From NCBI RefSeq assembly GCF_053078305.1, contig NZ_CP166879.1: a stretch of DNA of 64,000 bases; one strand, written 5' to 3'. The position numbers and the translations under genes are program-made. Positions 31,059 through 63,119 of the stretch are shown here, one piece after another. The notes below the pieces were generated by a model. The model was not told the origin of the DNA. It saw only the letters and a program-made list of their open reading frames with translations, and searched no databases. Each line of letters starts with the position of its first letter. The stretch's first letter is position 1.

Positions 31059-31069
31059 ATGAAGTAGGG

Positions 31070-31618: not shown

Positions 31619-31633
31619 GGGTATTTCCTTAAA

Positions 31634-32935: not shown

Positions 32936-32937
32936 GA

Positions 32938-33986: not shown

Positions 33987-34102
33987 CGGTTGTATTCCTT
34001 TTTTCATATCGGGGAGCGCGCTGTTGCGAGTGCGCTTTCAGACATAAAAAAGCCCGTCACTTGCGGCGGGCAAAGACTACACACAGCAATTACATGGATG
34101 AT

Positions 34103-34297
34103 TCAGTTGGTATTGTGCGTACGTGGTACCACAAGGTTGAAGCGGACACGCCAGTGCGTTGCAATGGTATGCAGGAAAGCACCACATCCAGGGCAGTGCT
34201 CATAACATTCGTTGATTTGGTATCGTTTTGGCTTTGGTGTCTGAAGCTGTGTTTGGCAAGCAGGGCATTCACCTTTGAGCGGTTTATATGTTTTCAC
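34103..34297 (-). CDS. Small Cys-rich putative zinc-finger protein
   Basis: 64 aa with CPAC...C..HCPGC arrangement; weak support. Confidence 0.3.
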   Translation of the reverse strand: MKTYKPLKGECPACQTQLQTPKPKRYQINECYEHCPGCGAFLHTIATHWRVRFNLVVPRTHNTN

Positions 34298-34576
34298 GCC
34301 GTTTCCTCATTCAGTTCACTTTGGTGGTTCGGCGGCTTCGACTTGTATCAGTAGGCAGTGCTTCGCCGCACCCCAAAGGGAACTTACTGACCCGTATTGC
34401 CGACATCCTGTCCCGCCACGGTCCCGACGCATGGTTTAGAGTCGCGCCGTTCGACTTGTGGCTAAAGATACAATTTGAGTTGTATTGTGTAAACCACAAA
34501 CGTGGTATTTTGTGGGGTGTGAATACTACTTTATTGATATTTAAGTGAATTTAATTTGTAAGACTTTACAAATGGG

Positions 34577-34600
34577 GTAAGGGAGGCTGTTACGCCTCCC
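34577..34600 (-). terminator. Hairpin downstream of repressor gene
   Basis: gggaggc-tgttac-gcctccc 7-bp stem directly 3' of the cI-like gene on the minus strand. Confidence 0.4.
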
Positions 34601-34619
34601 GATATTTACGGTGGGAATA

Positions 34620-35243
34620 CTAACGTTTACGGCGGTAAATACGGTGTTCGATCATTACACCTATGATCTGTAAGTTCATATCTGCACTACGAAAAATAGG
34701 GTAATCAGGATTTAGGGGGATTAATTCAAAGTCGTCGATGCCGATTCCTAATGGACGGTATTTTTTAAATGTAGCTTCGTGACCGTCGTTTTTGGCGACA
34801 ACAAACTCCCCTGGTGCAGGACATAGTTCAGGATCGATGATAACAATGTCTCCTTCTTTAAACTCTGGTTGCATGCTGTCGCCATCAATACGTAATGCGA
34901 AGCATGTTTCTGGAATGTCAGAGTCTGCCAAAATATATTCAAATTCCCCTGTCAGATCTGTTATGTCTCTTGCTTCTGTAAGCTCTCCTGCCTGAACGTA
35001 ACTTAATATAGGTATGCGTCTGGTACTTATCTCCGCGAGAGGCATAATATTTTTACCGTTCAGTAGCCAGTCTGGGCTACATTTCAAGGCCTTAGCCAGA
35101 TCCAGAAGATTGCGTGGCTTTCTGGTTCGTCCACTTTCGATGGATTCTATGGATTGTTGGCTAACCCCTGCAGAATTCGCTACTTCCACTTGAGTCATTC
35201 CTAATTCCAAACGACGTGCTTTAAAACGGGCTGCGAGAGACAT
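34620..35243 (-). CDS. cI-like prophage repressor (HTH_XRE plus S24 LexA-like peptidase)
   Basis: N-terminal HTH (LGMTQVEVANSAGVSQQSIESIESG) and C-terminal GDSM...K catalytic dyad; start at MSLAARF. Confidence 0.85.
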   Translation of the reverse strand: MSLAARFKARRLELGMTQVEVANSAGVSQQSIESIESGRTRKPRNLLDLAKALKCSPDWLLNGKNIMPLAEISTRRIPILSYVQAGELTEARDITDLTGEFEYILADSDIPETCFALRIDGDSMQPEFKEGDIVIIDPELCPAPGEFVVAKNDGHEATFKKYRPLGIGIDDFELIPLNPDYPIFRSADMNLQIIGVMIEHRIYRRKR

Positions 35244-35363
35244 GGGATTAGTCCTTCTGGGTTGTATTAATGTGTATACCCACATTAAAAACAATTTTTG
35301 TTGTATTTGACAAACCTCATTTGTTGTTGCTAAATACCACTAAAATTGTATGAGGTGAAAGCA
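35244..35363. promoter_or_regulatory. Divergent repressor/cro control region with operator palindrome
   Basis: Perfect 8-bp inverted repeat ttaatgtg-N6-cacattaa at 35267..35288; TTGACA at 35307..35312 and TAAATA at 35331..35336 oriented toward cro. Confidence 0.5.
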
Positions 35364-35576
35364 ATGACCTTAGCGACCCGAGTAAAAGAACGACGTAAAG
35401 AACTCAAAATGACGCAAGTTACGTTGGCTGAGCTCACAGGAGTGAGCCAGCAGGCAATAAACAGAATTGAAAGTGGTGTTATTGCTCGGCCACGTTATCT
35501 TCTTGAAATGTCTATAGCATTGGATTGCGACCCTAATTGGCTGTTGTATGGCTCACAAAACGATAAAAAGGCTTAA
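35364..35576 (+). CDS. Cro-like HTH regulator
   Basis: MTLATRVKERRKELKMTQVTLAELTGVSQQAINRIESG; gaggtga RBS before ATG at 35364. Confidence 0.7.
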   Translation: MTLATRVKERRKELKMTQVTLAELTGVSQQAINRIESGVIARPRYLLEMSIALDCDPNWLLYGSQNDKKA

Positions 35577-35579
35577 CCC

Positions 35580-37772
35580 ATGTCCGATAGCAAACCATGG
35601 GGAGCTACGCCTGATGAGTGGTTTCATTTCGACCTGGTATTGGGGAGAACTGATCATCTTCTCCCAGTTGTATGTAACCCCGGTGCGACCATATCCCCTG
35701 ATAGTAAACTGAAAGCGCTGGGTAAGACGCCAAGTCGCTATAACCGGGACCGCCAGGTCACCGGTATTGCTCAATGGACCGGGTATGTTGTTACTGAGCA
35801 TGATTTTGCCCGCTGGTCGAATGAACCGGATTATGGCATCTGCGTGCGTACAGGCCATGGCTGGCTGGCGCTGGACGGCGATAGCGAAGATGAAGACATT
35901 CAGGCAGATATTCGCAAAACGCTTGTGCAACTTCTGGGGGAGTTGCCGCCGCGACGCTGGCGAGCAAACAGTAATAAGTGTCTGTATCTGCTGGCCGTTG
36001 ATGGTGATTTCCGTAAGCGTATCCATCGCCTGGCGGGGGATATGGGCATTATCGAGTTGCTGGCGAACGGGCAGCAGTTCGTTGCCTGTGGTACGCACAG
36101 CAGCGGCGCGCGTATTGAATGGGACGGTGGTTTGCCGGATGAACCTCCGGCTATTACTGGTGAGCAGCTTGAAACGCTGTGGCAGCGCCTGGCTGAACAA
36201 CTCCCTGTGTCGGTAACCACCGAAGCGGGCAACACGAAGATGCGCGACCGATCAGCATTCACGCCCGGCGCGACGGATGATACAGCTGAATATCTTGATG
36301 CCAATGGCTGGACGCTGCTGGATGGCGCAAATGGTGAACGATATATCCGCTGTCCGTTTGAAGACGGCCACAGTAGCGGGGGCGATCCAACAAGCACAGC
36401 TTATTTTCCTGCGGGAACCGCGGGCTTTGAGCAGGGGCATTTTAAATGCCTGCATGCCAGTTGTGCGCATCGTGATGACGGAGATTTCCTTAATGCCATC
36501 GGGATCCGCAACGACGATTTCGAAGATCTGACCAGCACCGAAGTGGCGGAACCTTTACCGCTGCCTGCTTTCGAGCGTGATAAATGGGGGCGTATCGAGG
36601 CAACCATCAGCAACGCAGCCAAAGCAGTAGTACGCCCTGATTTTGTGGACATCGATATTCGCTTTGACCAGTTCCGCGACGAAATCATGTTTGCCTCTGC
36701 AGGATCCGGACAATGGCGAGCATTCACCGATGCGGATTATGCGCGCCTGCGCATCACGATGGAAAAGCGGGGATTTAAACCTGTTGGTCGTGAACTTATT
36801 CGCGATGTGGTGTTACTTGCAGCCGATGAACAACCATTCGATTCAGCGATTACCTGGCTGAACGGGCTGGAGTGGGATGGCGTGCCGCGCATCGAATGTT
36901 TCTACCATACGCACTTCGGTACAGCCGACACGCCTTATACCCGTGCGGTGTCTATGTACATGTGGACCGCGTTGGCGGGGCGAGTACTGGAGCCAGGCAT
37001 CAAAGCGGATATGGTGCCGATCCTCGTTGGTCCGCAGGGCTGCGGTAAGTCTTCCGGAGTGGAGGCACTGAGCCCTGATCCTGCGTTTTTTACTGAAATC
37101 TCTTTTGCCGAAAAAGACGATGATCTCGCTCGAAAAATGCGTGGTCGGCTGGTGGCAGAGATTGGTGAACTGCGCGGACTTAATACCAAAGAGCTGGAGT
37201 CAATCAAAGCGTTTGTGACGCGTACTCACGAAAACTGGATCCCGAAATACCGGGAGTTCGCCACCCAGTTTCCTCGTCGCCTGGTGTTCGTTGGTACCAC
37301 CAATGAGGACGAATTCCTTGCGGACAAGACTGGTAACCGTCGCTGGCTCCCCGTGGAAGTGTCGAAAGTCGACGTGAAAGCGATAAAAAGAGATCTCCTT
37401 TTACTTTGGGCTGAGGCTCGTGAGGTGTTTCAGCGTCTGGGGGGTATCCAGTTCCGTGAGGCTGAACAACTGGCAGCGAGTGTCCATGAACAGTACACCA
37501 TCAAGGATGCTTGGCTTGAAACGGTAGAGAAATGGCTCGACACGCCAGACCTGATGACTAATGAACTTCCGCGAAATTGCGAATTTTTACGCGCAAGTGA
37601 TGTTTTGCGTGATGCGATTGGGCTAAATCCTGACCGCATCGGAAAACGCGAAGAAATGCGAATTAGTAATGTTTTGCAAAATTGCGGGTATAAGCGTGTC
37701 CAAAGGCGAATTGGGGGGAAAATGACTCGAATTTTTGAGGCGGTGTCCCAACCTGTACCAGCCTCAAAATAG
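35580..37772 (+). CDS. Phage replication primase-helicase (primase domain plus D5/VirE-like P-loop NTPase)
   Basis: 730 aa; Walker A GPQGCGKSS and downstream motif LVFVGTTNE; Cys/His cluster (CLHASCAH) in N-terminal half. Confidence 0.72.
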   Translation: MSDSKPWGATPDEWFHFDLVLGRTDHLLPVVCNPGATISPDSKLKALGKTPSRYNRDRQVTGIAQWTGYVVTEHDFARWSNEPDYGICVRTGHGWLALDGDSEDEDIQADIRKTLVQLLGELPPRRWRANSNKCLYLLAVDGDFRKRIHRLAGDMGIIELLANGQQFVACGTHSSGARIEWDGGLPDEPPAITGEQLETLWQRLAEQLPVSVTTEAGNTKMRDRSAFTPGATDDTAEYLDANGWTLLDGANGERYIRCPFEDGHSSGGDPTSTAYFPAGTAGFEQGHFKCLHASCAHRDDGDFLNAIGIRNDDFEDLTSTEVAEPLPLPAFERDKWGRIEATISNAAKAVVRPDFVDIDIRFDQFRDEIMFASAGSGQWRAFTDADYARLRITMEKRGFKPVGRELIRDVVLLAADEQPFDSAITWLNGLEWDGVPRIECFYHTHFGTADTPYTRAVSMYMWTALAGRVLEPGIKADMVPILVGPQGCGKSSGVEALSPDPAFFTEISFAEKDDDLARKMRGRLVAEIGELRGLNTKELESIKAFVTRTHENWIPKYREFATQFPRRLVFVGTTNEDEFLADKTGNRRWLPVEVSKVDVKAIKRDLLLLWAEAREVFQRLGGIQFREAEQLAASVHEQYTIKDAWLETVEKWLDTPDLMTNELPRNCEFLRASDVLRDAIGLNPDRIGKREEMRISNVLQNCGYKRVQRRIGGKMTRIFEAVSQPVPASK

Positions 37773-51829: not shown

Positions 51830-52006
51830 CGTTTAACAGCCTGCCGGACGGGCTGTCCTACCTTCTCAATCCGGTTGACGCCGGGTTAATTCCTTATACA
51901 GCACTTAAAGATGGCTCTGTCGATTTGTACGATATTGCTCTTTTGAATGACCATCTGGCGGTAAAAGCGGATAACCAGCGGCGCATTGAGAAATGGAGAG
52001 AGGATA

Positions 52007-53995
52007 ATGAACGCTGAAACTATTAAAGATTTCCTCGTCTCGCTTGGCTTCAGTGTGGATGATGCAGGAGCGAAAAAGTTCGGTTCTGTCCTCGCCGGTA
52101 CAACTGCAAATGTCATCAAAATGGGGCTGGCCGTTGAAGGAGCCGCGCTGTCCGTGGTGGCCTTCACGGCTAAGATCGCCTCCGGTCTGGATAATCTTTA
52201 CTGGGCGTCACAGCGCACTGGAGCGACAGTCCAGGGAATTCAGTCTATTGGCTATGCGGTTTCGCAGGTTGGCGGCAGCGTGGACGCTGCGCGATCTTCT
52301 CTGGAAAGCCTCTCCCGGTTTATTCGTAATAATCCCGGTGCAGAGGGATTTCTGAATCGCCTGGGGGTACAGACACGGGATGCCAGCGGTAACATGCGTG
52401 ACATGGCCGCTATTTTTACAGGTGTAGGCCAGAAGCTCAGCGGCATGCCGTATTACCGGGCTAACCAGTATGCGCAGATGCTGGGCATTGACGAAAATAC
52501 CCTTATGGCGATGCGTCGGGGTGTGGGTGGTTTCTCCGGGCAGTACAGCGCAATGGCGAAAGCTATCGGCTTCAATGCTGACGAGGCGGCCAGAAGCTCC
52601 AACAAATTTATGACCTCCCTGCGTGAGTTTAGCGCGATGGCAGGCATGGCCCGTGACAAAATCGGCTCTAATCTTGCGGGTGGACTTGCGGGGTCGCTGG
52701 ACACCCTGCGCCGCCATATCCTGGACAACTTCCCGCGCATCGAGCAGACTCTGACGAAAGCCATAAAAGGCATTCTGGCGCTCGGGGATATTATCGGGCG
52801 GCTGTTCTTCAGACTGATTGAGGGGACATCAGGCCTTATCACCTGGTGGCAATCGCTGGATAAGCAAACGCGGGAGTTGATCTCGCTGTTTGGCGCACTG
52901 ACGATTGCGCTGCGCATTCTGAACAGTACGTTCTGGATGTCGCCGATTGGCCTCATTACCGCGCTGGCGGCGGGGATTGCCCTCCTGTGGGAGGACTATC
53001 AGACCTGGAAGGAAGGCGGCGACAGCCTGATTGACTGGGGCAAGTGGAAACCGGAGGTCGATGCCGCGCTGAAGATGGTTCGTGACCTTAAAACAACCGT
53101 TAACGACCTGGTGAAAGCGCTGGCGAAACTGCTCAATATTGACCTCAAATCATGGTCCCTGAAGTGGGATTTCAGCAACTTCATCGACCAGATGGGCGAA
53201 TTCAGCAAAATGCTGAACATGATCGCCGACCTGCTCAACGCTATCAAAGATGGCCGCTGGGCTGATGCCGTCAGCATCGGCAAACAGATACTTAATCAGG
53301 GCAGCGAAAATCCGTCAGCGATGCCGATGGTTACAGACAGCGCTAACAGTACTGCCGACTGGATTAAAGAGCACTGGGGATTCGATCCCCGCAGCGTGGG
53401 CCGGACGGTACGCGGCTGGTTTGGTGATGATGAGCCGGAACAACATGCACAGGCTACGAAACGAGGAGAACGGAATAACAATCCGGGAAACCTTAATTTT
53501 GCTGGTCAGGCAGGGGCTTCTCTTGAACGCCCGGGCGGGCGATTTGCCAGATTTGAAACTGCCTTTGATGGATTACGGGCTCTTGCTCGTCAGTTAATGC
53601 TGTACGCCGGACGGGGAATAAACAGTGTGGAGAAAATTATCTCTACCTGGGCACCTGCGTCTGATAATAACAACACAACTGCGTATATCAGGGCTGTATC
53701 GCAACGACTGGGAGTGGATCCCCGGGCTGCCCTGAATATGAGCGATCCGCAAACCATGTCAGCATTGATGAGCAGCATTATCCAGCATGAAAATGGAAGA
53801 AATATCTATTCTCGAGAGCTGATTAATAAGGCTGCCGTGGCGGGAATTAGTGGCAAAATGACAGAGGTTAACCAGCAAAATACTTACCACATTTACGGTG
53901 GCGGAGATCCGCACGCTGTCGGTAATGAGGTTGCACGTCGGCAACAGTCTGCAAATGCTCAGGTCATGCGAAGTAATCAGGTGAGGGTGGGTTAG
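52007..53995 (+). CDS. Tail tape measure protein
   Basis: About 660 aa, Ala/Gly/Leu-rich helical protein with hydrophobic central segments; ATG at 52007 preceded by ggagagagga. Confidence 0.7.
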   Translation: MNAETIKDFLVSLGFSVDDAGAKKFGSVLAGTTANVIKMGLAVEGAALSVVAFTAKIASGLDNLYWASQRTGATVQGIQSIGYAVSQVGGSVDAARSSLESLSRFIRNNPGAEGFLNRLGVQTRDASGNMRDMAAIFTGVGQKLSGMPYYRANQYAQMLGIDENTLMAMRRGVGGFSGQYSAMAKAIGFNADEAARSSNKFMTSLREFSAMAGMARDKIGSNLAGGLAGSLDTLRRHILDNFPRIEQTLTKAIKGILALGDIIGRLFFRLIEGTSGLITWWQSLDKQTRELISLFGALTIALRILNSTFWMSPIGLITALAAGIALLWEDYQTWKEGGDSLIDWGKWKPEVDAALKMVRDLKTTVNDLVKALAKLLNIDLKSWSLKWDFSNFIDQMGEFSKMLNMIADLLNAIKDGRWADAVSIGKQILNQGSENPSAMPMVTDSANSTADWIKEHWGFDPRSVGRTVRGWFGDDEPEQHAQATKRGERNNNPGNLNFAGQAGASLERPGGRFARFETAFDGLRALARQLMLYAGRGINSVEKIISTWAPASDNNNTTAYIRAVSQRLGVDPRAALNMSDPQTMSALMSSIIQHENGRNIYSRELINKAAVAGISGKMTEVNQQNTYHIYGGGDPHAVGNEVARRQQSANAQVMRSNQVRVG

Positions 53996-54582
53996 TGGAT
54001 ATTCTCTCTACACTTTTTCATCAGCAGAGCAGAAAAATAGGAATGATTGTTCCCAGTGTTGTTATTTCAGAGAAGCATACAGATATGCTTGAAATAACAG
54101 AGCATCCGGTAGAGGTTGGGGCCGCTGTCGCTGATCATGCCTATAAAAAACCGTCAGAAGTGGTGATGGAGGTTGGTTTCGCCGGTGGCGGCGCATTGCT
54201 GGATTTTGCCAGTAATCTGACGGCTACCAGCCTGCTCGGCCTGAGTCCTCAGCAGACGTATCAGGAGCTACTGGATCTGCAGGAAAGCCGTATCCCCTTC
54301 GATGTGGTAACCGGTAAACGACTGTACAGCAACATGTTGATCCGGGCGTTGGAAGTGACGACGGACAAGACAACCGAAAACGTCCTGTCCGCCGTCCTCA
54401 CCCTGAGGGAGGTCATTATCTCCCGGACACAGCAGATTACCGTCGCGGATAAAACCAACATGAAGGAAGGGGCCAGCACGTCGGCGGTACAGAACAGCGG
54501 CAACAAAACCACAAAGCCTCCAGATACTTCACTGCTGAAAAGCATCACGGGTAACGTGGCGTCATTACTGGGGGGCGGCTAA
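53995..54582 (+). CDS. Putative tail/baseplate assembly protein
   Basis: 195 aa; module position only. Confidence 0.4.
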   Translation: MDILSTLFHQQSRKIGMIVPSVVISEKHTDMLEITEHPVEVGAAVADHAYKKPSEVVMEVGFAGGGALLDFASNLTATSLLGLSPQQTYQELLDLQESRIPFDVVTGKRLYSNMLIRALEVTTDKTTENVLSAVLTLREVIISRTQQITVADKTNMKEGASTSAVQNSGNKTTKPPDTSLLKSITGNVASLLGGG

Positions 54583-54884
54583 TGACAATTCAGGAAATTC
54601 CGCTGACAGCGGACAACCAGCAGTTCAGCATCGTCCTGGGGGGTGTCACCTGGCGGATTAGCATCATATGGCGCGATCTGTACTGGATTATGGACCTGCA
54701 GAACGACAGAGGGGAGCCGGTAATCTCCGGTATTCCTCTTGTCACTGGTGCTGACCTGCTGGCGCAGTACGCCTGTATGGGGCTTGGTTTTAAGCTGGTG
54801 GTGGTCTGTGATGACAACACACAGGATTACCCCACAAAAACTGACCTGGGCGGTCGCAGCCATTTACTGGTATCAACGGAGTAA
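54582..54884 (+). CDS. Putative tail protein
   Basis: 100 aa. Confidence 0.35.
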   Translation: MTIQEIPLTADNQQFSIVLGGVTWRISIIWRDLYWIMDLQNDRGEPVISGIPLVTGADLLAQYACMGLGFKLVVVCDDNTQDYPTKTDLGGRSHLLVSTE

Positions 54885-54886
54885 GC

Positions 54887-55951
54887 ATGTCACAGAACTG
54901 GATGAGACATTTCGAGCTGCAGCTTGTGGACGGGAACGGTCAGGGAATTGAGCTAAGTGATTTCAAAGTCACCTTTACGATCGACTGGTTCAACATCAGC
55001 AGCGCGTCCCGGGTAGGGACTATCAAAATTTATAACCTCTCGGCAGATACTGTGAACCGAATTACCGGGCAGGAGTTTTCGAAAGTGCGTCTGATTGCCG
55101 GTTACGACGGTATCGCGCCGGAGGTGTCAGCAAGCGACGTAGGGACCGTGCGGGGAGTTGACGCGGCGGACGTGGGCCAGAGAGATGGCCGCAACTACGG
55201 ACTGATTTTCAGCGGTGAAATTCGCTACTCGGTCACAGGAAAAGACAGTCCGGTTGATACCTACGTCCTGATTCAGGCAGCAGATACTGATCTGGCTTTT
55301 GCCACCAGTATAACCTCACAGACGCTGGCTGCCGGTTACACGGTCGCTGATGTGAACCGTGCGCTGATGAAAGACTTCGAAGCCAAAGGCGCGACCGAAG
55401 GCCTGACGCCTGAAATGCCTGCTACTGTATTCCCCCGGGGGCGGGTACTCTTTGGCATGACGCGGCATCTAATGGATAACGTAGCCGGACAATGTGGCGC
55501 AACATGGCAATTCGTGGACGGTCAGCGCCAGATGGTGGCGAATAACGAATATGTTCACGAAGCGATTGTGCTCAACAGCGCTACCGGGCTTATTGGCATG
55601 CCGCAGCAGACTATCGGTAACGGCGTAAACGTCCGCGCGCTTATTAATCCGAACATCCGGGTTAACGGGCTCATTCAGCTGGATCAGGCTTCCGTCTATC
55701 GTACCGCGTTGTCGAACAACGATATTGCGATGGCTGGTGGTCAGATCACCGACCAGAACACGGACGGAAATATCACGCTCAGCGGCACCACATCGCAGCC
55801 TGCCTGCATCGCAACGGATGGCGTTTATATTGTGCGCGGGATTATGTACACTGGCGACACAAGGGGCCAGGCGTGGTACATGGATATGATGTGTGAAGCG
55901 CGTGGCGCGGCGGATCTTGTTTCCTCATCAGCGAGGGAAAGAGGGCTTTAA
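54887..55951 (+). CDS. Putative baseplate hub / Mu P-like tail protein
   Basis: 354 aa; module position upstream of spike and wedge genes. Confidence 0.5.
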   Translation: MSQNWMRHFELQLVDGNGQGIELSDFKVTFTIDWFNISSASRVGTIKIYNLSADTVNRITGQEFSKVRLIAGYDGIAPEVSASDVGTVRGVDAADVGQRDGRNYGLIFSGEIRYSVTGKDSPVDTYVLIQAADTDLAFATSITSQTLAAGYTVADVNRALMKDFEAKGATEGLTPEMPATVFPRGRVLFGMTRHLMDNVAGQCGATWQFVDGQRQMVANNEYVHEAIVLNSATGLIGMPQQTIGNGVNVRALINPNIRVNGLIQLDQASVYRTALSNNDIAMAGGQITDQNTDGNITLSGTTSQPACIATDGVYIVRGIMYTGDTRGQAWYMDMMCEARGAADLVSSSARERGL

Positions 55952-56286
55952 TGAAACGGTTATGTTTGGCGTTAGTTATGATGGTTACTGCTCCGGCGAT
56001 GGCTGCAATTCAGTGCGGCAACTACACGATGACCGGTGACGGAATGACTGTTATTAACGGTGAAACTGTCACATCACAGAAGATAAAATTTCTGGGAAAA
56101 GATGGTGACTATTCAAACATGAAAATGGACATGGGCCTGATGCCTTCCCGTGATGGTAACAATTACGGCTTTGAGTTTGTGAAACGTAACGGAAAAGCTT
56201 TCCTGAACGTCCAGCTGCTGCAGAACAGCATGGACGCGCCGAAAATCATTGGATCTTTCCCGTGTAAAAAAGTGAGCAGCAAGTGA
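55951..56286 (+). CDS. Secreted small protein of unknown function (cargo inside baseplate operon)
   Basis: 111 aa with cleavable signal peptide MKRLCLALVMMVTAPAMA; start overlaps upstream stop (TAATGA). Confidence 0.45.
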   Translation: MKRLCLALVMMVTAPAMAAIQCGNYTMTGDGMTVINGETVTSQKIKFLGKDGDYSNMKMDMGLMPSRDGNNYGFEFVKRNGKAFLNVQLLQNSMDAPKIIGSFPCKKVSSK

Positions 56287-56795
56287 CAGTTGATGATGAT
56301 CCTTTGAATTCATTTCAAGACCCTGACTTTCAGGAACTTCTCGGCGGAATTGATATTACTCTTGTTATAAGGTTTTTTAATTATTTTTCGCGTTTCGAAT
56401 ATGCGTTAAAAAGAATTAATTTCAAAAAAACTGATCGTAGAAATTATCTAATCGGTGCTGACTGGAGCCGCTACGCTACTGATGATACGCGGCCTTTATA
56501 TCCTACTGGAAATAGAAATGTCGATAGGGCAGTTGAGTATCTATGTCAGCAACCTGTGAAGCAGCAGAGGCATGATTTTTCGTGGGAGGATAAACCTCCA
56601 ATCGAACCTCATTCTCTTGCTGAAGCATTAAAGCAGATCCCGTATATAAGAAATAATCTCTTTCACGGCGGGAAGTATTTACGTCCCGACCCCGTTCGTG
56701 ATGAAAAGTTATTGAAATACTCTATTTATTTGATGCAGTTGTGTTTGATAACTGATAATCAGCTTTCTGAATACTTTAATACTATCCACCGATAG
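56283..56795 (+). CDS. AT-rich protein of unknown function (cargo inside baseplate operon)
   Basis: 170 aa; markedly AT-rich versus flanking baseplate genes; followed by a hairpin plus T-run. Confidence 0.45.
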   Translation: MTVDDDPLNSFQDPDFQELLGGIDITLVIRFFNYFSRFEYALKRINFKKTDRRNYLIGADWSRYATDDTRPLYPTGNRNVDRAVEYLCQQPVKQQRHDFSWEDKPPIEPHSLAEALKQIPYIRNNLFHGGKYLRPDPVRDEKLLKYSIYLMQLCLITDNQLSEYFNTIHR

Positions 56796-56805
56796 TCATT
56801 CTTCA

Positions 56806-56840
56806 TGAGATAAAACCTGCCACCCGGCGGGTTTTTTGCT
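56806..56840 (+). terminator. Possible terminator after cargo gene
   Basis: accc-ggcg-gggt short stem followed by ttttttgcttttt. Confidence 0.4.
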
Positions 56841-56855
56841 TTTTGGAGCCTAACA

Positions 56856-57608
56856 ATGGCAGTAACTGACCAGACCCGCAGTGGCGATCTTGCCGAAACA
56901 TTTAAATCTGAACGGGAAACAACAAAGAACCAGATCCGTGTCGCCTTGCCTGGCATTATTCAGTCATTCGATCCTGACGCGGTGACGGCGGTTGTGCAGC
57001 CAGCTATCCGGTCGGTTGAAAAGGATAACGACGGTAACCGCATTACCAAAAATTACCCATTGCTGGTGGATGTGCCAGTGGTATTCCCGCGCGGCGGAGG
57101 CTGTACGTTGACTTTTCCGGTAAAAGCTGGGGATGAGTGTCTTGTCGTTTTTGCCGATCGTTGTATTGATTTCTGGTGGCAGAGCGGCGGGATACAGGAG
57201 ACGGTTGATGACAGAATGCATGATTTATCGGATGCGTTTTGTATTGTCGGTCCCCAGTCGCAGGCAAGGAAGATTAGCGGTATTAATACCAGTGCCACAC
57301 AGTTGCGTAGTGACGACGGCAGCACCTATTTTGAGCTTAATCCTGATACCCGGAAAATTAAAATTGTCGCTCCGGGGGGGCTTGATGTGGTTGCCCCCCT
57401 GGCTGATTTTTCTGAGAAAGTAACCATTCATGGCCTGTTAACCTGGATGGGGGGCATGGTGGGGTCTGTTGTTTCTGGTGTGGCTTCAAAAATCACTGGT
57501 GCTGTTGAGTTTTTGGGTAGCGTGAAGGCTAACGGCAAGCCAATCGATGATACGCACACTCATGGTGGTGTTCAGCGCGGTGGAAGCAATACCGACGGAG
57601 TAAACTGA
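56856..57608 (+). CDS. Baseplate spike/central needle protein (Mu gp45-like)
   Basis: 250 aa; Gly-rich C-terminal repeats and HTHGGVQRGGSNT tip motif. Confidence 0.55.
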   Translation: MAVTDQTRSGDLAETFKSERETTKNQIRVALPGIIQSFDPDAVTAVVQPAIRSVEKDNDGNRITKNYPLLVDVPVVFPRGGGCTLTFPVKAGDECLVVFADRCIDFWWQSGGIQETVDDRMHDLSDAFCIVGPQSQARKISGINTSATQLRSDDGSTYFELNPDTRKIKIVAPGGLDVVAPLADFSEKVTIHGLLTWMGGMVGSVVSGVASKITGAVEFLGSVKANGKPIDDTHTHGGVQRGGSNTDGVN

Positions 57609-57961
57609 TGCGATACAGACGTGAAGACGCCGATGGCGATTACACCTTTGGCAGCGGTGATGACACCTGGCTGATTAACTCACCGGAGGCCGTGGCGCAG
57701 GCGGTAAAAACGCGATTCGAATTGTGGTATGGGCAATGGTTTCTCGACACCACCGAGGGGACTCCGTGGATCCAGTCCGTACTCGGTAAGCAGAAGCCGG
57801 AAACCTACAACCTGGCGATCCGTAAGCGCATCCTCGAAACGCGGGGCGTTAAATCAATCCTCTCTTTCAATACGACGGTGGATACCACGACCCGACGTGT
57901 CATGTTTTCCGCTGAAATCGACACTCTTTATGGAATAACGACTGTTACATCGGAGGCGTAA
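57608..57961 (+). CDS. Baseplate wedge protein (gp25/W-like)
   Basis: 117 aa, precedes baseplate J. Confidence 0.5.
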   Translation: MRYRREDADGDYTFGSGDDTWLINSPEAVAQAVKTRFELWYGQWFLDTTEGTPWIQSVLGKQKPETYNLAIRKRILETRGVKSILSFNTTVDTTTRRVMFSAEIDTLYGITTVTSEA

Positions 57962-59160
57962 TGGCTCTGAACCTTGATTCTCTCGGTTTATCTGCAAAGG
58001 TAACCGCGGAGGGGATCAGTGCGCCTGATTATCAGACGATACTCAGCACCCTGATTAGCTATTTTCAGCAGATTTATGGCAGTGATGCCTACCTCGAACC
58101 GGACAGCAAAGACGGCCAGATGGTGGCTCTGATGGCGCTGGCGATTCATGATGCCAATAATATGGCGATAACTGTCTACAACTGTTTTTCACCGGCAACC
58201 GGCTATGGGGCTGCACTGACCAGTAACGTGAAAATAAATGGTATTTCACGTAAAGGCGCGACGAACTCTACGGTTGATTTGCTTCTTACAGGAACTGCCG
58301 GAACAACCATCATTAATGGCAGCGTGAAAGACAGTAATAATGTGATATGGCGTTTGCCTGCTTCAGTAGTGGTCGGCGTGGATGGTACAGTGATGGCGAC
58401 CGCAACATGTTCCGTCAGTGGTGCAGTGGCGGCGCTGGCTGGAACTATCACTGAAATTAATACGCCAACCCGTGGCTGGGTTTCGGTAACTAATCCTGCT
58501 GCGGCTACTGTGGGCACTCTGGCAGAAACTGACGCGGAGTTACGTATCCGTCAGTCGCAAAGTGTTGCGTTGCCATCAATAACCCCATTTGAAGCACTGG
58601 ATGGTGCTGTTTCTAATGTTACCGGTGTAACCCGCCACAAACTCTATGAAAACGATACTGGTTCGGAGGACGGTAACGGGTTACCGCCACACTCTGTTGC
58701 TGTAATTGTGGATGGCGGTGATGTGACGGATATTGCTCAGGCTATCAGAGGGAATAAAGGCCAGGGGACAGCCACTCACGGTACAACATCCGTTACGGTT
58801 CCGGATAAATACGGCAATCCCCATGTAATCAAATTCTCGCGTTCCAGTGATGTGCCTGTTTATGCCCGGATTAAATTAAAAGTTTTTACGGGTTATACCT
58901 CACAGATAGGGCAGCAGATCCAGCAGGCTATTTCCGACTATATCAATAGTTTGACGATTGGTGATTCGGTCCTTTTAAGTCGCATTTACTCACCGGCGAA
59001 TCTTGGCGTGGTGAGTGGCGGGAATGCACGCTATTACGATATTCAGGAACTGACGATTGGGAAATCCCCGGGGGCTTTGTCGTCATCAAACATTGATATC
59101 AGATACAACGAATCTGCGTCCTGTACCCCGGAAAATATCGTTATAACGGTGGAGTCATGA
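57961..59160 (+). CDS. Baseplate J-like protein
   Basis: 399 aa; size and position typical of baseplate J. Confidence 0.6.
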   Translation: MALNLDSLGLSAKVTAEGISAPDYQTILSTLISYFQQIYGSDAYLEPDSKDGQMVALMALAIHDANNMAITVYNCFSPATGYGAALTSNVKINGISRKGATNSTVDLLLTGTAGTTIINGSVKDSNNVIWRLPASVVVGVDGTVMATATCSVSGAVAALAGTITEINTPTRGWVSVTNPAAATVGTLAETDAELRIRQSQSVALPSITPFEALDGAVSNVTGVTRHKLYENDTGSEDGNGLPPHSVAVIVDGGDVTDIAQAIRGNKGQGTATHGTTSVTVPDKYGNPHVIKFSRSSDVPVYARIKLKVFTGYTSQIGQQIQQAISDYINSLTIGDSVLLSRIYSPANLGVVSGGNARYYDIQELTIGKSPGALSSSNIDIRYNESASCTPENIVITVES

Positions 59161-59837
59161 GCAAATACACCGAACTAATCACGAACTACCACGCCACCAA
59201 ACCTAAATTTCTTGCGCATGTTGATCTGATGACCCGGCCGCTTATTGATGTTGCGGCTGCCACCAGAGGGCTGATTACTGCATTTGATATTGACTCTGCG
59301 GTTGGTGTGCAACTTGACATTCTGGGATTGTGGATCGGACGTAGCCGTGTTGTCAGCCAGCCTATCTCAGGTGTCTATTTCAGCTGGGATACCGACGGGC
59401 TTGGATATGATCAGGGGGTATGGCAGGGACCATACGATCCTGATTCCGGATACATGTACCTCAGCGATGAAACTTATCGTGTCATTCTTAAAGCGAAGAT
59501 TGCGATTAATAACTGGGATGGACGGAATGATTCGCTTCCGGCAATTCTTGACGCTGCAACAGCAGGATCCGGGCTGCGAATGCAGATAGTCGATAACCAG
59601 GACATGACGATATCGGTCTGGGTCTTTCCTGATACTGATATTTCAGATGTATCGCGTGAGTTAATTGCGGCAATTAAACAGGGGTATCTCACAGTAAAAG
59701 CCGCCGGGGTATGGGCGGGTGGCATTGAAACACCTTCGGTGGAAACCCCATCGGAAGGCTCAAAATTTTTTGGTTTTGATATGGATAACGAATTCATCAG
59801 TGGTTTTGATGTAGGAGCATGGGGAGTATTACTCTGA
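59157..59837 (+). CDS. Baseplate wedge/tail fibre attachment protein (Mu gp48 / P2 I-like)
   Basis: 226 aa following baseplate J. Confidence 0.5.
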   Translation: MSKYTELITNYHATKPKFLAHVDLMTRPLIDVAAATRGLITAFDIDSAVGVQLDILGLWIGRSRVVSQPISGVYFSWDTDGLGYDQGVWQGPYDPDSGYMYLSDETYRVILKAKIAINNWDGRNDSLPAILDAATAGSGLRMQIVDNQDMTISVWVFPDTDISDVSRELIAAIKQGYLTVKAAGVWAGGIETPSVETPSEGSKFFGFDMDNEFISGFDVGAWGVLL

Positions 59838-60292
59838 TGGCGAAAAATGACTTTAAAGCGTTTGCAACGGATCGAAATGCCAATGTTATATCGCAGGAGG
59901 AATGGGAAGCGTTGCCCGCGCTTTTATCCGGATTTACAGCAGGGAAAGCCTCCAGTGCGCAAGTCAATAAGGTTATTCGGCAGGTCAGCTTTATTGCTGC
60001 AGCTCTGGCCCAGTTTGTAAGTGATAAAACGCAACGGGATGTGCTTGATAATGGTGATCTGCCCGGTTTTGTTGAATTGCTGGGATCGGGGTTTGCTGTT
60101 GAATACCTGAGCCGCAAGAATCCGTTTGGTGATATCAAATCGGATGGCACGGTGAAAACGGCTCTCGAAAACCTTGGTTTGGGAGAAGAGCACAGCGTTA
60201 AGCCGGGTTGTTTCTGCCTGCGTCAGCTTCCGCCCGGCCTGCAATTTCAGCTGAATCAGACTAATGGAAGCCATAGCCGCATCAATCAGTGA
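59819..60292 (+). CDS. Tail fibre, constant N-terminal part; truncated in the present orientation of the invertible segment
   Basis: ORF crosses the left recombination site at 60174 (…ALENLGLGE) and then reads antisense to tfa for about 40 codons to a stop. Confidence 0.55.
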   Translation: MGSITLMAKNDFKAFATDRNANVISQEEWEALPALLSGFTAGKASSAQVNKVIRQVSFIAAALAQFVSDKTQRDVLDNGDLPGFVELLGSGFAVEYLSRKNPFGDIKSDGTVKTALENLGLGEEHSVKPGCFCLRQLPPGLQFQLNQTNGSHSRINQ

Positions 60293-60715
60293 CTGGCGCC
60301 GTACTTCTGCCGCGTCTACTGCGGCGTTATGCTGTGCCTCAGTGTCGGTCACCCATTTCTCACCATCCCATTTATCGTATGACGTTAACGGGGCGATAGT
60401 GGTTGTATTTTCAGGGTAATCACCCGGAACTGTGATTTCTTTTGATTCTCCTGTTTCGGTGCTATAGACGATTTCACCGCGATGGTCTGGCACATATTCC
60501 CATGAGTTAAAATCTGCAGAACGGCAAATTGCATAACCAGCTTTATATGAGCCAGGAGCATCTAAACAGGAACATGCCGGGATACCGACACCCACAGCAA
60601 GATATTCAGTTGATGTGGAAATATATTCCCGTGTTTCACCATCATAATTATAAACGGTAATGTCTCCGGCCTTTGTGGCGATGAGTTCATTATTTAATAC
60701 AGCTTTACTTATCAT
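59924..60715 (-). CDS. Tail fibre assembly protein (Tfa/U-like); ORF currently reads through the left recombination site
   Basis: N-terminal 180 aa inside the segment resemble Tfa proteins (…SWEYVPDHRGEIVYSTETGESKEITVPGDYPENTTTIAPLTSYDKWDGEKWV…); last 83 codons lie outside the segment, antisense to the fibre gene. Confidence 0.6.
   Translation of the reverse strand: MISKAVLNNELIATKAGDITVYNYDGETREYISTSTEYLAVGVGIPACSCLDAPGSYKAGYAICRSADFNSWEYVPDHRGEIVYSTETGESKEITVPGDYPENTTTIAPLTSYDKWDGEKWVTDTEAQHNAAVDAAEVRRQSLIDAAMASISLIQLKLQAGRKLTQAETTRLNAVLFSQTKVFESRFHRAIRFDITKRILAAQVFNSKPRSQQFNKTGQITIIKHIPLRFITYKLGQSCSNKADLPNNLIDLRTGGFPCCKSG
60162..60187. repeat. Left recombination site of invertible segment (gix/hix-like, 26 bp)
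   Basis: ctctcgaaaacc-tt-ggtttgggagaa: two 12-bp quasi-palindromic half-sites around a 2-bp core, inverted copy at 61171..61196. Confidence 0.65.
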
Positions 60716-61184
60716 GCAGCCCTCACAATATAATTAAAGGCGATGTTACGGGAGCGGGTTTCAGATGCTGTGCGAACTGAGCGAGATGCGTCGAATGTCC
60801 AGTTATAAGCGCCATAACCCTCAATAATTTCGGCTTCCTTTAGACCTGTAGATAATACTTGCCCATGTTGACTAAATGGCCCTGAACTAAGTACGTCTCT
60901 AAAAAGCTGGGTACGCCCAAAAGAACCAACAATATTCTGAATTGCATCATTCTGTGCAGATAATAAGTTACGACCAGAGTCAATCCCGCGCCCATCATCC
61001 CAGCCACGAATAAATTCACCGCGTAAATCTGGTAATTTTAATGTTGGGTAAGCCTTTGCCAGATTTGGGTACTTTTCAGAAGAAAATACTGCTCCGTTAC
61101 ATTTTAGCCACCCCATTGGCGGAGTGGCTGAAGGCCACGGAACAGGCACACCAACCGGTAATGCAGAGCCTTCTCCCAAACCAA
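60174..61184. other. Invertible DNA segment (about 1 kb) carrying one tail-fibre C-terminus plus tfa cassette
   Basis: Flanked by inverted 26-bp sites (21 of 24 positions identical); invertase gene immediately adjacent. Confidence 0.65.
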
Positions 61185-61224
61185 CGTTTATGAAAATGCA
61201 GAAATAACGAGCAAATGGCATCAT
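60712..61224 (-). CDS. Tail fibre variable C-terminal cassette (tail-collar-like domain), silent in current orientation
   Basis: Open frame begins within the right recombination site (…NVGLGEGSALP…); GWLKCNGAVFSSEKYPNLAKAYPTLKLPDLRGEFIRGWDDGRGIDSGRNLLSAQNDAIQN resembles the phage tail collar domain. Confidence 0.6.
   Translation of the reverse strand: MMPFARYFCIFINVGLGEGSALPVGVPVPWPSATPPMGWLKCNGAVFSSEKYPNLAKAYPTLKLPDLRGEFIRGWDDGRGIDSGRNLLSAQNDAIQNIVGSFGRTQLFRDVLSSGPFSQHGQVLSTGLKEAEIIEGYGAYNWTFDASRSVRTASETRSRNIAFNYIVRAA
61171..61196. repeat. Right recombination site of invertible segment
   Basis: ttctcccaaacc-aa-cgtttatgaaaa, inverted copy of the left site. Confidence 0.65.
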
Positions 61225-61250
61225 TCCTGCTTTTGTCAGGGAGATCTACC

Positions 61251-61805
61251 ATGCTTATTGGCTATGTACGCGTATCAACAAATGACCAGAATACCGATCT
61301 ACAACGTAATGCGTTGAACTGTGCAGGATGCGAGCTGATTTTTGAAGACAAGATAAGCGGTACAAAGTCCGAAAGGCCGGGACTGAAAAAACTGCTCAGG
61401 ACATTATCGGCAGGTGACACTCTGGTTGTCTGGAAGCTGGATCGGCTGGGGCGTAGTATGCGGCATCTGGTCATTCTGGTTGAGGAGTTGCGCGAACGTG
61501 GCGTTAATTTTCGCAGCCTGACGGATGCTATTGATACCAGCACACCGATGGGGCGTTTTTTCTTTCATGTGATGGGGGCCCTGGCTGAAATGGAACGAGA
61601 ACTGATTGTTGAACGAACAAAAGCTGGACTGGAAGCTGCTCGCGCACAGGGACGAATTGGTGGACGTCGTCCCAAACTTACACCAGAACAATGGGCGCAG
61701 GCCGGGCGACTAATTGCATCAGGAGTTCCTCGCCAGAAGGTGGCGATCATTTATGATGTTGGCGTATCGACTTTGTATAAGAAGTTTCCGGTCGGAGATA
61801 AATGA
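61251..61805 (+). CDS. pin: Serine DNA invertase (Pin/Gin/Hin family)
   Basis: MLIGYVRVSTNDQNTDLQRNAL... with catalytic Ser and C-terminal HTH; closely resembles e14 Pin as recalled; ATG at 61251 after aggga. Confidence 0.88.
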   Translation: MLIGYVRVSTNDQNTDLQRNALNCAGCELIFEDKISGTKSERPGLKKLLRTLSAGDTLVVWKLDRLGRSMRHLVILVEELRERGVNFRSLTDAIDTSTPMGRFFFHVMGALAEMERELIVERTKAGLEAARAQGRIGGRRPKLTPEQWAQAGRLIASGVPRQKVAIIYDVGVSTLYKKFPVGDK

Positions 61806-61885
61806 AACCGTAGCACGTCGTATGCAAGAACGTGCCACGGCTGGCTGATAAGCTTGTAAAAATATTGAACAGGGAGTGGAGCATT

Positions 61886-62533
61886 CTATGAAGCTAATTT
61901 GTTTAATTTCATTTGTAGTGACTTTACTTCTTGGTCGATAATGTCGAATCCCTTATTGACAGCATCTCTTAGCTCTGCATCAATATTTTTTATCCCTTGA
62001 GCATAATCTACCATTATATTTATTTTTGCATCATGTAATCTCTTATACATGGTTTTATTTTTGTTATTGTCTGCCATGCCAATAAGGATTTTTTCATAAT
62101 CCTCAATGAGTTTGTTGTTTCCTTTAAATGATTGTATTAATGAGCGTGAATATGTGTATATGTTAATTATTGAGTCTCTAGCAGAATCATTTAGTTTTGC
62201 AATGACATTCGCATTTTGCTCATAGAATGTGAAATTATCATCCCCTACAGGGAATGTGAGAATCAACATTTGTCCCGGTTTTATATTATCAATGTGTGTT
62301 TTCATCCTTTTATTATATAAATTGATTAGGGTGAAAACTTCTCCCTTAACTCCTTTTAATACTGAAAGTTGTAATTCAAGGGATTCTCTTTCTGTCTCTA
62401 CTTTAGACAGCTTAGCTTGTTGGGTAACTCCTTTTAGGGTAAACCATCCGCCAATAAGAGTACCAACTAGAGCTGTGAGGGAGGAGGATAACCATCCAGG
62501 TATGCTATTTAAAAGATTACTAAATTCACTCAT
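61886..62533 (-). CDS. Membrane-anchored protein of unknown function (cargo at prophage right end)
   Basis: 215 aa; N-terminal TM helix (WLSSSLTALVGTLIGGWFTL), predicted coiled coil, N/K-rich soluble domain; AT-rich. Confidence 0.45.
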   Translation of the reverse strand: MSEFSNLLNSIPGWLSSSLTALVGTLIGGWFTLKGVTQQAKLSKVETERESLELQLSVLKGVKGEVFTLINLYNKRMKTHIDNIKPGQMLILTFPVGDDNFTFYEQNANVIAKLNDSARDSIINIYTYSRSLIQSFKGNNKLIEDYEKILIGMADNNKNKTMYKRLHDAKINIMVDYAQGIKNIDAELRDAVNKGFDIIDQEVKSLQMKLNKLAS

Positions 62534-62593
62534 TATAAGTACTCGCTAATATTGAACGATATATATATATCAAATTATTATAAAACTCGTCAG

Positions 62594-62935
62594 CTACTGG
62601 AGAAGGCTACCTGAACTTCGATCTATTCCTGCATCCATATAGTTGATGGTCTTCTGGAGCTCTTCGATTAGGGCAACAGCTTTTGCTCGAGAAATGCATA
62701 TTAGTTGATCCGGAAATTCTTGTAAGGGCCAGTTTGGTATACAGGCCATGTTATCAATGAAGGATGCAGACAAGTAAACTTCATTGGTAACCAGAGAATA
62801 GCTTACCTCAAAATTGGTGAGTTCCGGCAAACTGCTAACGTTTGACTCTTTTCTGCGCATAATATTATCCATGACTGTAATTATGTACAGGTGATGGTCT
62901 TCAATTTCGAAGAGGGAGTCAAGGGGGAGTCTCAA
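62594..62935 (-). CDS. Protein of unknown function (cargo, upstream partner)
   Basis: 113 aa, AT-rich, same strand as and 60 bp upstream of the 215-aa gene. Confidence 0.45.
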   Translation of the reverse strand: MRLPLDSLFEIEDHHLYIITVMDNIMRRKESNVSSLPELTNFEVSYSLVTNEVYLSASFIDNMACIPNWPLQEFPDQLICISRAKAVALIEELQKTINYMDAGIDRSSGSLLQ

Positions 62936-63062
62936 ATGAACCGTTATAGAAAAAGGGGGGGGATCTTTGTGTTGCTGAACTTATGCAAAATTTTTTTGCA
63001 CCATAAATCCAACAACACATTCAATAACACATTGCTGTATCACTATGAAAATAAATGTGTTT

Positions 63063-63119
63063 TTATTTGATTTCACACATATCACAATTGATGCATTTTT
63101 TAGTGATTAACAGCGCCAT
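63063..63119 (-). pseudogene. yfhL: Remnant of original yfhL 5' end (19 codons) at attR
   Basis: Minus-strand ATG at 63119 encodes [18 protein letters not shown] then stop; first 16 residues match YfhL N-terminus; diverges at the att core. Confidence 0.6.
63072..63089. repeat. attR core (18-bp direct repeat)
   Basis: ttcacacatatcacaatt identical to 22676..22693. Confidence 0.6.

Follow-up and report, generated by a model that had tools for sequence, protein, structure and literature searches.

The 64,000-nucleotide stretch of DNA analysed here, referred to as the window, contains a prophage in whose tail operon two small genes stand between the gene for the baseplate hub and that for the baseplate spike. 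This hub–spike junction, its two genes and the terminator behind them are the subject of the present analysis. All features of the junction lie on the plus strand. The hub gene (54887..55951, 354 amino acids) matches phrog_196 (E 3.9e-89) and forms the conserved left flank. It is followed by gene 1 (55951..56286), which is conserved in the lineage and encodes a putatively exported small protein of 111 amino acids with the signal peptide in residues 1–18 (55951–56004), and by gene 2 (56283..56795), which starts with GTG and encodes a minimal HEPN-domain protein of 170 amino acids, a predicted ribonuclease (RNase) effector. The codons of its motif R123-N-N-L-F-H128-G-G-K131, of the HEPN catalytic type Rx4H by alignment, are located at 56649..56675. 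An intrinsic terminator (56812..56845), consisting of a hairpin at 56812–56835 and a T-run, closes the accessory unit. The spike gene (56856..57608, 250 amino acids) with its GGAG ribosome-binding site at 56845–56848 is the conserved right flank; related records name it baseplate spike or membrane-puncturing spike. The ATG of gene 1 overlaps the stop codon of the hub gene (TAATG), and the GTG of gene 2 overlaps the stop codon of gene 1 (GTGA).

Both reading frames and the hairpin, initially noticed in a sequence-only reading of the window, are real; the positions of the two frames were confirmed by the list of open reading frames and by the Prokaryotic Genome Annotation Pipeline (PGAP) annotation of a 99.8% identical E. 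coli chromosome, where genes 1 and 2 have identical boundaries and are both named hypothetical proteins. The foreign composition ascribed to gene 2 could be verified as well: with a GC content of 38.2% and 33.9% GC at third codon positions (GC3) it differs from the hub gene (54.7%, GC3 61.7%) and the spike gene (50.9%). Gene 1 is with 45.2% intermediate between the cargo and the flanks (50–55%). An Rfam scan of 55500–57200 gave no RNA family match.

At 99% identity, the region matches four induced E. coli phages, namely vB_EcoM-689R2 and its relatives. It is also related to the Salmonella phage SEN34, the Klebsiella phage Mulock and the Yersinia phage YP3. For SEN34, a myovirus, regulation of the lambda-like kind has been described (PMC5261728). 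In the window, a Q-like late antiterminator gene (38054..38476, plus strand; phrog_79 anti-termination protein Q-like, E 1.5e-38; PGAP name 'antiterminator Q family protein') precedes the lysis, head, tail and baseplate genes, which form a single co-oriented block, and the late genes are all found on one strand. The phage is a temperate, SEN34-like myovirus, and its late regulator is of the lambdoid Q type. An assignment as Mu-like phage was rejected on the grounds of this lambdoid regulation, and the Mu-like character suggested in the sequence-only reading does not apply to the phage overall.

Variable content of the hub–spike junction

Salmonella phage BP63, a virulent relative, has its hub and spike genes directly side by side; genes 1 and 2 are therefore truly extra. 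Comparison with related tail modules thus supports the insertion proposed earlier, and both genes are accessory to the baseplate module, as BP63 contains neither and the content of the slot varies among the relatives. Matches to the region were obtained in 351 of 5426 complete E. coli genomes, 24 of which carry the whole query including the gene 2 cargo. The junction is present in ~6% of complete E. coli genomes, with relatives from Klebsiella, Salmonella, Yersinia and Pantoea. Inspection of 14 loci by hand revealed at least nine different fillings next to hub and spike genes whose proteins are mostly 96–99% identical to those of the window. These fillings comprise DUF4282, DUF2335, a YafO toxin with its partner, a 257-amino-acid protein, a 258-amino-acid protein together with a canonical HEPN, a protein with two transmembrane segments, a lipoprotein and others. 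E. coli loci with different cargos share hubs of 96–99% and spikes of 97–98% identity.

For a census of the slot, IMG/VR was scanned with the gene 1 alignment. From 370 relatives the best 80 loci were kept, so that close relatives of the window's gene 1 allele are favoured, and 74 of them contain both gene 1 and the spike gene. The interval from gene 1 to the spike gene ranges from 62 to ~1500 base pairs across these 74 viral contigs. Four slots are empty, with an interval of 62–68 base pairs that contains just the terminator and the ribosome-binding site of the spike gene, and 70 are filled with 18 cargo configurations. The gene 2 cargo is present in 4 of the 74 contigs.

The second commonest cargo (11 of 74 loci) is a membrane protein of 411 amino acids with T5orf172/MUG113 domains that matches PD-Lambda-1 (PADLOC, E 1e-84). 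PD-lambda-1 is SNIPE, an experimentally validated membrane nuclease cutting phage DNA during injection (PMC13190303). With this homologue the slot demonstrably carries anti-phage cargo. The homologue is located at 3917–5152 of locus L101 (L numbers denote the loci compared) and in ten other loci (L097, L100 and others), and exhibits a transmembrane segment, a coiled coil and a T5orf172 domain; the tail operon of these myovirus prophages thus houses a validated nuclease that blocks injection. Further cargos include the YafO toxin, a canonical HEPN (PF05168) and a transmembrane protein with an Mrr_cat nuclease domain.

The commonest filling, observed in 25 of the 74 contigs, is a two-gene module of an apparently TPR-like protein (243–276 amino acids) and a canonical HEPN protein (123–154 amino acids), located for instance at 1554–2682 of L005 and in L035, L038, L054, L062, L064, L088, L091 and L104. 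This HEPN matches PF05168 (E 1.8e-6) and, marginally, HEPN_IX in PADLOC (E 0.006); neither protein of the module has a confident PADLOC system match. The module looks like a candidate for a defence or toxin–antitoxin system. In the distantly related Burkholderia phage BgManors32 a single gene occupies the hub–spike junction (L028, 3993–4451) on the opposite strand, with 47% GC in a region of 65% GC, and its product is a protein of 152 amino acids with a signal peptide. Insertions of secreted-protein genes at this junction therefore recur across distant hosts.

The hairpin with its T-run is the best terminator-like site in 53900–60000. It has 10 pairs and folds at −19.3 kcal/mol (z = −3.3 versus shuffled sequences). 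Hairpin stem (CCCGCC-loop-GGCGGG), T-run and the ribosome-binding site of the spike gene are conserved behind unrelated cargos, with variable loops and, in the terminator of phage Mulock, one compensatory change of the stem. In empty slots the hairpin follows ~25 nucleotides past the stop codon of gene 1. Loci sharing the same gene 1 allele diverge after FPCKK, and similarity resumes at the hairpin. Since the hairpin is kept with every cargo and stands directly behind gene 1 in empty slots, the basic unit is, judged from these alignments, gene 1 plus terminator, with cassettes swapped between the last 2–4 codons of gene 1 and the hairpin. In the window this exchangeable cassette spans 56272..56811, from just past the FPCKK codons to just before the hairpin. 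Gene 2 had been credited with a terminator of its own. The hairpin and T-run are real, but they do not belong to gene 2, being conserved behind every cargo and in empty slots.

Morons (Juhala et al. 2000) are recognised by their absence from the same position in relatives, a deviant base composition and their own terminator and promoter, the latter active in the lysogen. Absence is given by BP63, by the four empty slots among 74 and by the patchy occurrence of the cargo; the deviant composition is that of gene 2 (38.2% GC); and a terminator is present, though as part of the conserved unit and not of the gene 2 cargo. A promoter-like site lies inside gene 1 (56060–56089) and agrees with 9 of 12 consensus positions, which is at chance level. 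A hotspot in the sense of Rousset et al. 2022 has conserved flanks with many alternative cargos, here 18 configurations in 70 filled loci, and its cargos include validated defence systems, here the PD-Lambda-1/SNIPE homologue in 11 of 74 loci. Taken together, the hub–spike junction of this prophage is most likely an accessory-gene (moron) slot acting as an anti-phage defence hotspot.

The probably exported two-cysteine protein

The N-terminus of the gene 1 product exhibits a K/R region, a hydrophobic core of 15 residues and an AMA|A cleavage site. Signal-peptide features are kept in 112 of 117 full-length homologues, and the N-terminal 18–25 residues are variable in sequence. The mature part is highly conserved and contains exactly two cysteines in 116 of the 117 homologues, with C22 and C105 invariant or nearly so. 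These features agree with the export deduced in the sequence-only reading, and the protein is very probably exported. The predicted fold of the mature protein is a β-barrel of about eight strands, seven of which are assigned in the model. The fold match is generic, with avidins scoring higher than envelope exclusion or inhibitor proteins. Scans with Pfam, PADLOC and NCBIfam gave nothing useful for the gene 1 protein. No sequence similarity to T4 Sp, to the Cor/Llp lipoproteins or to the PliC/MliC lysozyme inhibitors was found, so that these can serve as analogy only.

The family corresponds to phrog_3443 and comprises 410 proteins at E<=1e-3 across Enterobacterales. SEN34, Mulock, YP3 and a Pantoea prophage likewise have a homologue behind their hub gene, and gene 1 is kept in almost every related temperate enterobacterial prophage, including those with an empty slot behind it. 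One E. coli locus has a lipoprotein in its place. Among phage records, gene 1 occurs in 20, compared to 154 with a hub homologue. The 20 records are from phages of Klebsiella, Escherichia, Salmonella, Yersinia and Citrobacter, one lists no host, and many are prophage-derived. From this ratio and the restriction to enterobacterial phages it follows that gene 1 is accessory to the baseplate, and its product is very unlikely to be a part of the virion.

The same gene 1 allele (at least 98% identical) precedes at least five different cargos. Conversely, gene 1 is only 54–60% identical in loci whose hub and spike are 96–98% identical to the window, and the window's allele (at least 98%) is also found with spikes of only 68–70% identity. 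The gene 1 alleles are therefore decoupled from their flanks. Such a pattern would fit an envelope protein under diversifying or exchange pressure, for example an exclusion factor. The superinfection exclusion suggested earlier for this pair of genes is, by analogy, plausible for the gene 1 product only. The precedent cited for it, tail-operon morons that exclude other phages, is sound and is provided by HK97 gp15 and P2 Z/fun.

Two further observations concern this protein. Six viral contigs (for example L077, 3836–4219, and L107, 3833–4207) encode in cargo position a second, distantly similar secreted protein of ~125 amino acids with the same layout as gene 1, namely a signal peptide, a cysteine near the mature N-terminus and another near the C-terminus. 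Such a layout points to a paralogue of the exported barrel that has been duplicated or has diverged. Upstream of the hub gene, the C-terminal third of the tape measure protein (53426–53953, residues ~481–656 of the open reading frame 51986–53995) matches endolysin and tail-injection-transglycosylase PHROGs, and the PGAP name for the whole protein is 'lytic transglycosylase catalytic'. This transglycosylase end is a possible periplasmic target of an exclusion factor such as gene 1. Gene 1 alleles and tape-measure C-termini were compared in four loci only, and the region is mosaic.

The HEPN-type cargo protein and its family

No recognisable motif had been noted in the gene 2 protein from the window alone. 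Alignments of 27 and 103 family sequences now reveal invariant residues E39, R123, H128 and G129 and a near-invariant RNNLFHGGK, and the string RNNLFHG is found in 118 of 131 family representatives sharing <=50% identity. An Rx4-6H motif with a polar residue after the arginine is the HEPN signature (Anantharaman et al. 2013, PMC3710099). In the gene 2 family this motif takes the form Rx4H with asparagine as the polar residue, and R123 and H128 are invariant in the 103 sequences. A second conserved block, FSRFEYALK, is located on the first long helix. The confident AlphaFold (AF2) monomer model (predicted local distance difference test, pLDDT, 90.8; predicted template modelling score, pTM, 0.86) shows an up-down core of four helices, the third of which carries the motif at its end; the motif of ApeA and other HEPN domains is placed likewise. 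In ApeA structures the HEPN active site lies on the third core helix (bioRxiv 10.64898/2026.01.26.701840). A Foldseek search of AFDB50 gave 74 matches at E<=1e-3, mostly named Apea-like, RiboL-PSP or pEK499-p136 HEPN. Profile searches of the PDB with the 27 and 103 sequences gave weak matches to a CRISPR-associated protein (E 0.018 and 0.1), whose RNSVAHGGR aligns with the gene 2 motif. A UniProt entry identical to the gene 2 protein is already named Apea-like HEPN, a name that hmmscan did not reproduce. The accession WP_044190155 was not found in the parts of the DefensePredictor supplements examined.

Sequence models of known families do not recognise the protein. Among 27 family members no Pfam match was obtained at E<=0.1, including PF05168, PF18739 and PF01934. 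Since motif and fold match while all family models fail, the gene 2 protein belongs, as far as the model allows, most likely to the HEPN superfamily but to none of its named families. Motif and fold also make a cytoplasmic nuclease-type effector the predicted product; the receptor masking considered earlier is not supported for gene 2.

A profile search of 1.84 billion representatives, with clusters drawn at 50% identity, revealed 2413 clusters at E<=1e-3, of which 1802 remain at E<=1e-10. Nearly all members are stand-alone proteins of 155–185 amino acids; a few are fused to DUF6884, a domain common to DpdC and the PADLOC candidate PDC-M57A. Relatives with 50% identity are found in the same hub–spike slot of a Pantoea prophage and of a degraded prophage. 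More distant relatives are located in defence islands, where they adjoin HEPN_AbiV, TIR and Mrr-DEAD genes in one case and McrBC with a SACS/NOV_C protein in another. A third, also in such an island, is found near an MNT–HepT pair (L018, ~390 base pairs downstream), and a fourth is contained in an operon of XRE-type helix-turn-helix (HTH), ImmA/IrrE and HEPN genes. Across the family contexts examined, no partner gene and no antitoxin-like neighbour is conserved, and no nucleotidyltransferase gene adjoins the HEPN gene in the window or in nine other contexts. The claim that genes 1 and 2 form a co-inherited pair is contradicted by those relatives that stand in defence islands and in a siphophage with no gene 1 beside them, as well as by the empty slots and the association of one gene 1 allele with at least five cargos.

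Two of the contexts deserve a closer description. The operon at 5101–6513 of L015, also seen in L016 and L017, comprises on these three metagenomic contigs an XRE-type HTH protein, an ImmA/IrrE protein (Peptidase_M78) and a family member of 170 amino acids; its gene content suggests a version of the effector controlled by repressor and protease. The Klebsiella siphophage ST101-KPC2phi6.1 (L025, 3971–4489) encodes a 30%-identical member with the motif VRNNLFHGIK among its tail genes, with a divergent HTH gene beside it, which gives the family a second, independent place in a tail operon.

Proposed mechanism, alternatives and known systems

We lean towards a defence hotspot with an exported fixed member, in which the cassette of the window would encode a stand-alone, infection-activated HEPN RNase and the terminator would insulate the tail genes; on the evidence above we regard this as moderately probable. 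The fixed part would consist of the gene for the exported, disulfide-bonded β-barrel followed by the intrinsic terminator, and cassettes would recombine in between the last codons of gene 1 and the terminator. The present cassette appears to be one horizontally acquired, AT-rich gene for a 170-amino-acid stand-alone HEPN protein. Like other HEPN proteins it may dimerise and thereby form a composite, metal-independent Rx4H RNase site. We infer that infection triggers cleavage of cytoplasmic RNA in the manner of an abortive-infection or toxin-type effector, by which a competing phage would be stopped at the cost of the infected cell and the lysogen population would be protected. Translational coupling would co-express gene 2 with gene 1, with no functional dependence between them. 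A 52%-identical homologue of gene 2 in L069 is likewise coupled to its preceding gene (TGAATG), and from this recurrent coupling of start and stop codons it follows that the cargo rides on whatever transcribes gene 1.

In the lysogen, the terminator would halt transcription of the accessory unit before the spike and baseplate genes. From the T-run to the start codon of the spike gene there are only ~20 nucleotides. This gap leaves no room for a promoter, and late expression of spike, baseplate and fibre genes must therefore pass the terminator. Antitermination by Q is the established lambdoid means of terminator read-through. During lytic growth of the present phage, Q-modified RNA polymerase would pass the terminator in the same way.

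Several results weigh against this reading. There is no convincing sigma-70 promoter upstream, and promoter-like sites are no more frequent in the region than in shuffled sequence. With the promoter sites at chance level, gene 2 may be made only late in the lytic cycle of the phage and not in the lysogen. The HEPN assignment lacks support from family models, as no PADLOC (E<=1), Pfam (E<=10) or NCBIfam model matches the gene 2 protein and hhalign shows no relation to the canonical HEPN of L005, to HEPN_AbiV (L022) or to the 163-amino-acid HEPN of the validated system DS-28. Finally, a constitutive HEPN RNase with neither antitoxin nor sensor domain needs an unexplained way to stay inactive. 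On the minus strand, two overlapping promoter-like sites are located at 56380–56425 in the AT-rich 5′ part of gene 2; an antisense RNA spanning the border of genes 1 and 2 could start from them, but they may equally be due to chance in AT-rich DNA.

The chief rival explanation takes up the question of timing. The HEPN protein could serve the late lytic programme of the phage itself and, by cleavage of host or competitor RNA, act in host shut-off, counter-defence or against satellites. The overlapping start and stop codons from hub to gene 2 would permit translation from the late transcript, a good independent promoter is not present, the L069 homologue is coupled alike (TGAATG), and, as four induced E. 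coli phages carry it, the gene does not preclude the production of particles. The occurrence of family members in chromosomal defence islands and in the XRE–ImmA operon, outside phage late operons, argues against such a role, as do the other occupants of the slot, which are of lysogen-protecting types including the PD-Lambda-1/SNIPE homologue, and the terminator at the end of the slot, which is the classic moron layout for lysogenic expression. We therefore consider a late lytic function rather unlikely. Much the same low probability is assigned to a selfish element of toxin or addiction type, or a passenger in decay, kept by horizontal transfer and by linkage to the prophage with no anti-phage role. 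Toxin-type cargos such as YafO share the slot, and the foreign composition and the patchy occurrence, with the gene in 24 of 351 E. coli loci and in 4 of 74 viral contigs, would be in accordance with this explanation; on the other hand, no antitoxin-like neighbour is conserved in the contexts examined, and a motif almost invariant over ~2,400 clusters argues for selection on activity and not for decay.

That both genes form one system, in which the periplasmic β-barrel detects the arrival of a phage at the envelope and passes the signal on to the HEPN effector in the cytoplasm, appears very improbable. Their overlap does co-express them, and in enterobacterial prophages the HEPN gene is always found directly behind a gene 1 homologue. 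The same gene 1 allele is, however, found with YafO, DUF4282, the 257-amino-acid protein or nothing, HEPN relatives occur without gene 1, and a soluble exported protein spans no membrane across which a signal could be relayed. Least probable of all is a structural or assembly role of one or both proteins in the baseplate, for example as hub–spike adaptor or chaperone, an idea suggested by the position between hub and spike, the translational coupling to the hub gene and the conservation of gene 1 in the temperate enterobacterial lineage. The conserved cleavable Sec-type signal and the two cysteines are a periplasmic pattern, whereas tails assemble in the cytoplasm. Gene 1 is present in only 20 phage records against 154 for the hub, BP63 has neither gene, a lipoprotein replaces gene 1 in one E. 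coli locus, and gene 2 occurs in a small minority of otherwise near-identical tail modules.

Beyond the defence hotspot itself, a more far-reaching joint reading can be formulated that we regard as tentative and rather doubtful. Gene 2 would then represent a widespread new class of self-contained HEPN immune nucleases and gene 1 a new periplasmic superinfection-exclusion factor. At the same modest likelihood, no known single-protein HEPN defence might be smaller than the gene 2 protein, which would have neither antitoxin nor separate sensor and would be regulated via conserved inter-helix insertions (PPxxQ...W). No more firmly, the gene 1 barrel might act against the tail of an infecting phage, for instance against the transglycosylase end of its tape measure protein, with the divergent gene 1 alleles setting the specificity of exclusion.

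Slots of a comparable kind are known from other phages. The P2/P4 hotspots, including P2 Z/fun, are described in Rousset et al. 2022 (PMC9122126) and bioRxiv 10.1101/2024.10.15.618418 as variable defence genes between conserved structural genes. As at P2 Z/fun, accessory and defence genes are swapped inside a myovirus tail cluster and AT-rich cargo includes validated defence genes. In contrast, the present slot belongs to a SEN34-like lineage with lambdoid regulation, is located at the hub–spike junction, is nested behind a lineage-conserved gene for an exported protein and is closed by one conserved terminator. HK97 gp15 is an inner-membrane superinfection-exclusion protein, according to the accounts of Cumby et al. 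2012 and Juhala et al. 2000 cited in PMC10884400 and PMC13190303. It is likewise an extra, terminator-bounded gene in the tail operon of a Q-regulated temperate phage and benefits the lysogen by exclusion; the gene 2 relative in the tail operon of a Klebsiella siphophage adds to this likeness. In the present case one product is periplasmic and the other a predicted cytoplasmic nuclease, and the comparison is by description, not by sequence.

Among HEPN proteins, ApeA is a comparable system. It is a single-protein HEPN abortive tRNA anticodon nuclease of ~580 amino acids forming decamers or dodecamers (bioRxiv 10.64898/2026.01.26.701840; Gao 2020). Its N-terminal and Mid domains, ~330 amino acids before the HEPN domain, build the activating ligand pocket (bioRxiv 10.64898/2026.01.26.701840). 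The HEPN core, the motif on helix H3, the occurrence as a single gene and the structural neighbours named 'Apea-like HEPN' are shared, and the abortive RNase activity of ApeA is of the kind proposed for gene 2. The gene 2 protein, in contrast, has 170 amino acids and no N-terminal and Mid domains. With these pocket-forming domains absent and the PADLOC ApeA model unmatched (E<=1), membership in ApeA was rejected. HepT–MNT membership was rejected as well: the neighbours are the exported barrel upstream and the terminator downstream with no adjacent MNT nucleotidyltransferase, the motif is RNNLFHGG rather than Rx4HxY, and no Pfam HepT-like match is found. SNIPE shares the slot through its homologue in 11 of 74 related viral contigs, but is an unrelated membrane-anchored DUF4041–T5orf172 DNA nuclease cutting during injection and is absent from the window (PMC13190303).

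Other parts of the prophage were also inspected. The early region (28278–37772) encodes a DNA polymerase of 687 amino acids, DUF2815 and DUF2800 proteins, a LexA-family repressor and a VapE-domain protein of 730 amino acids; this replication module is unlike the lambda O/P type reported for SEN34. The segment 59819–61805 looks like an invertible tail-fibre segment. It contains a DNA invertase (61215–61805; phrog_125, E 1e-97) and next to it, on the reverse strand and facing the forward fibre gene, an alternative tail-fibre C-terminus (60712–61224) with an adjacent open reading frame (59924–60715) that may encode a fibre-assembly protein. The layout resembles a host-range switch of the Gin/Cin type. 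Past the invertase, a very AT-rich block (61850–63100, 30–39% GC) is probably another cargo region at the prophage end. Its reverse-strand open reading frame 61886–62533 (215 amino acids) has a hydrophobic N-terminal stretch by eye and no PHROG or PADLOC match, and the product of 62594–62935 (113 amino acids) matches phrog_17793, to which no function is assigned.

Prophage hotspots of this kind are already known (P2 Z/fun and old/tin; HK97 gp15), and HEPN nucleases are standard defence effectors. New are this particular junction with its architecture and the recognition, among its cargos, of a large minimal-HEPN family that no Pfam, PADLOC or NCBIfam model covers. In the literature searched, no prior description of a hub–spike hotspot, of SEN34 tail modules or of STY1065/STY2022 was found. 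Prophage hotspots are a productive source of new bacterial immune systems, and this junction already holds one validated system, the SNIPE/PD-lambda-1 homologue, beside many uncharacterised cargos. As the gene 2 family is large, matches no library model and has an almost invariant motif, it is a cheap and well-defined candidate for defence assays. The fixed layout of exported-protein gene, cassette, terminator and presumed Q read-through provides a simple rule by which further cassettes may be found automatically.

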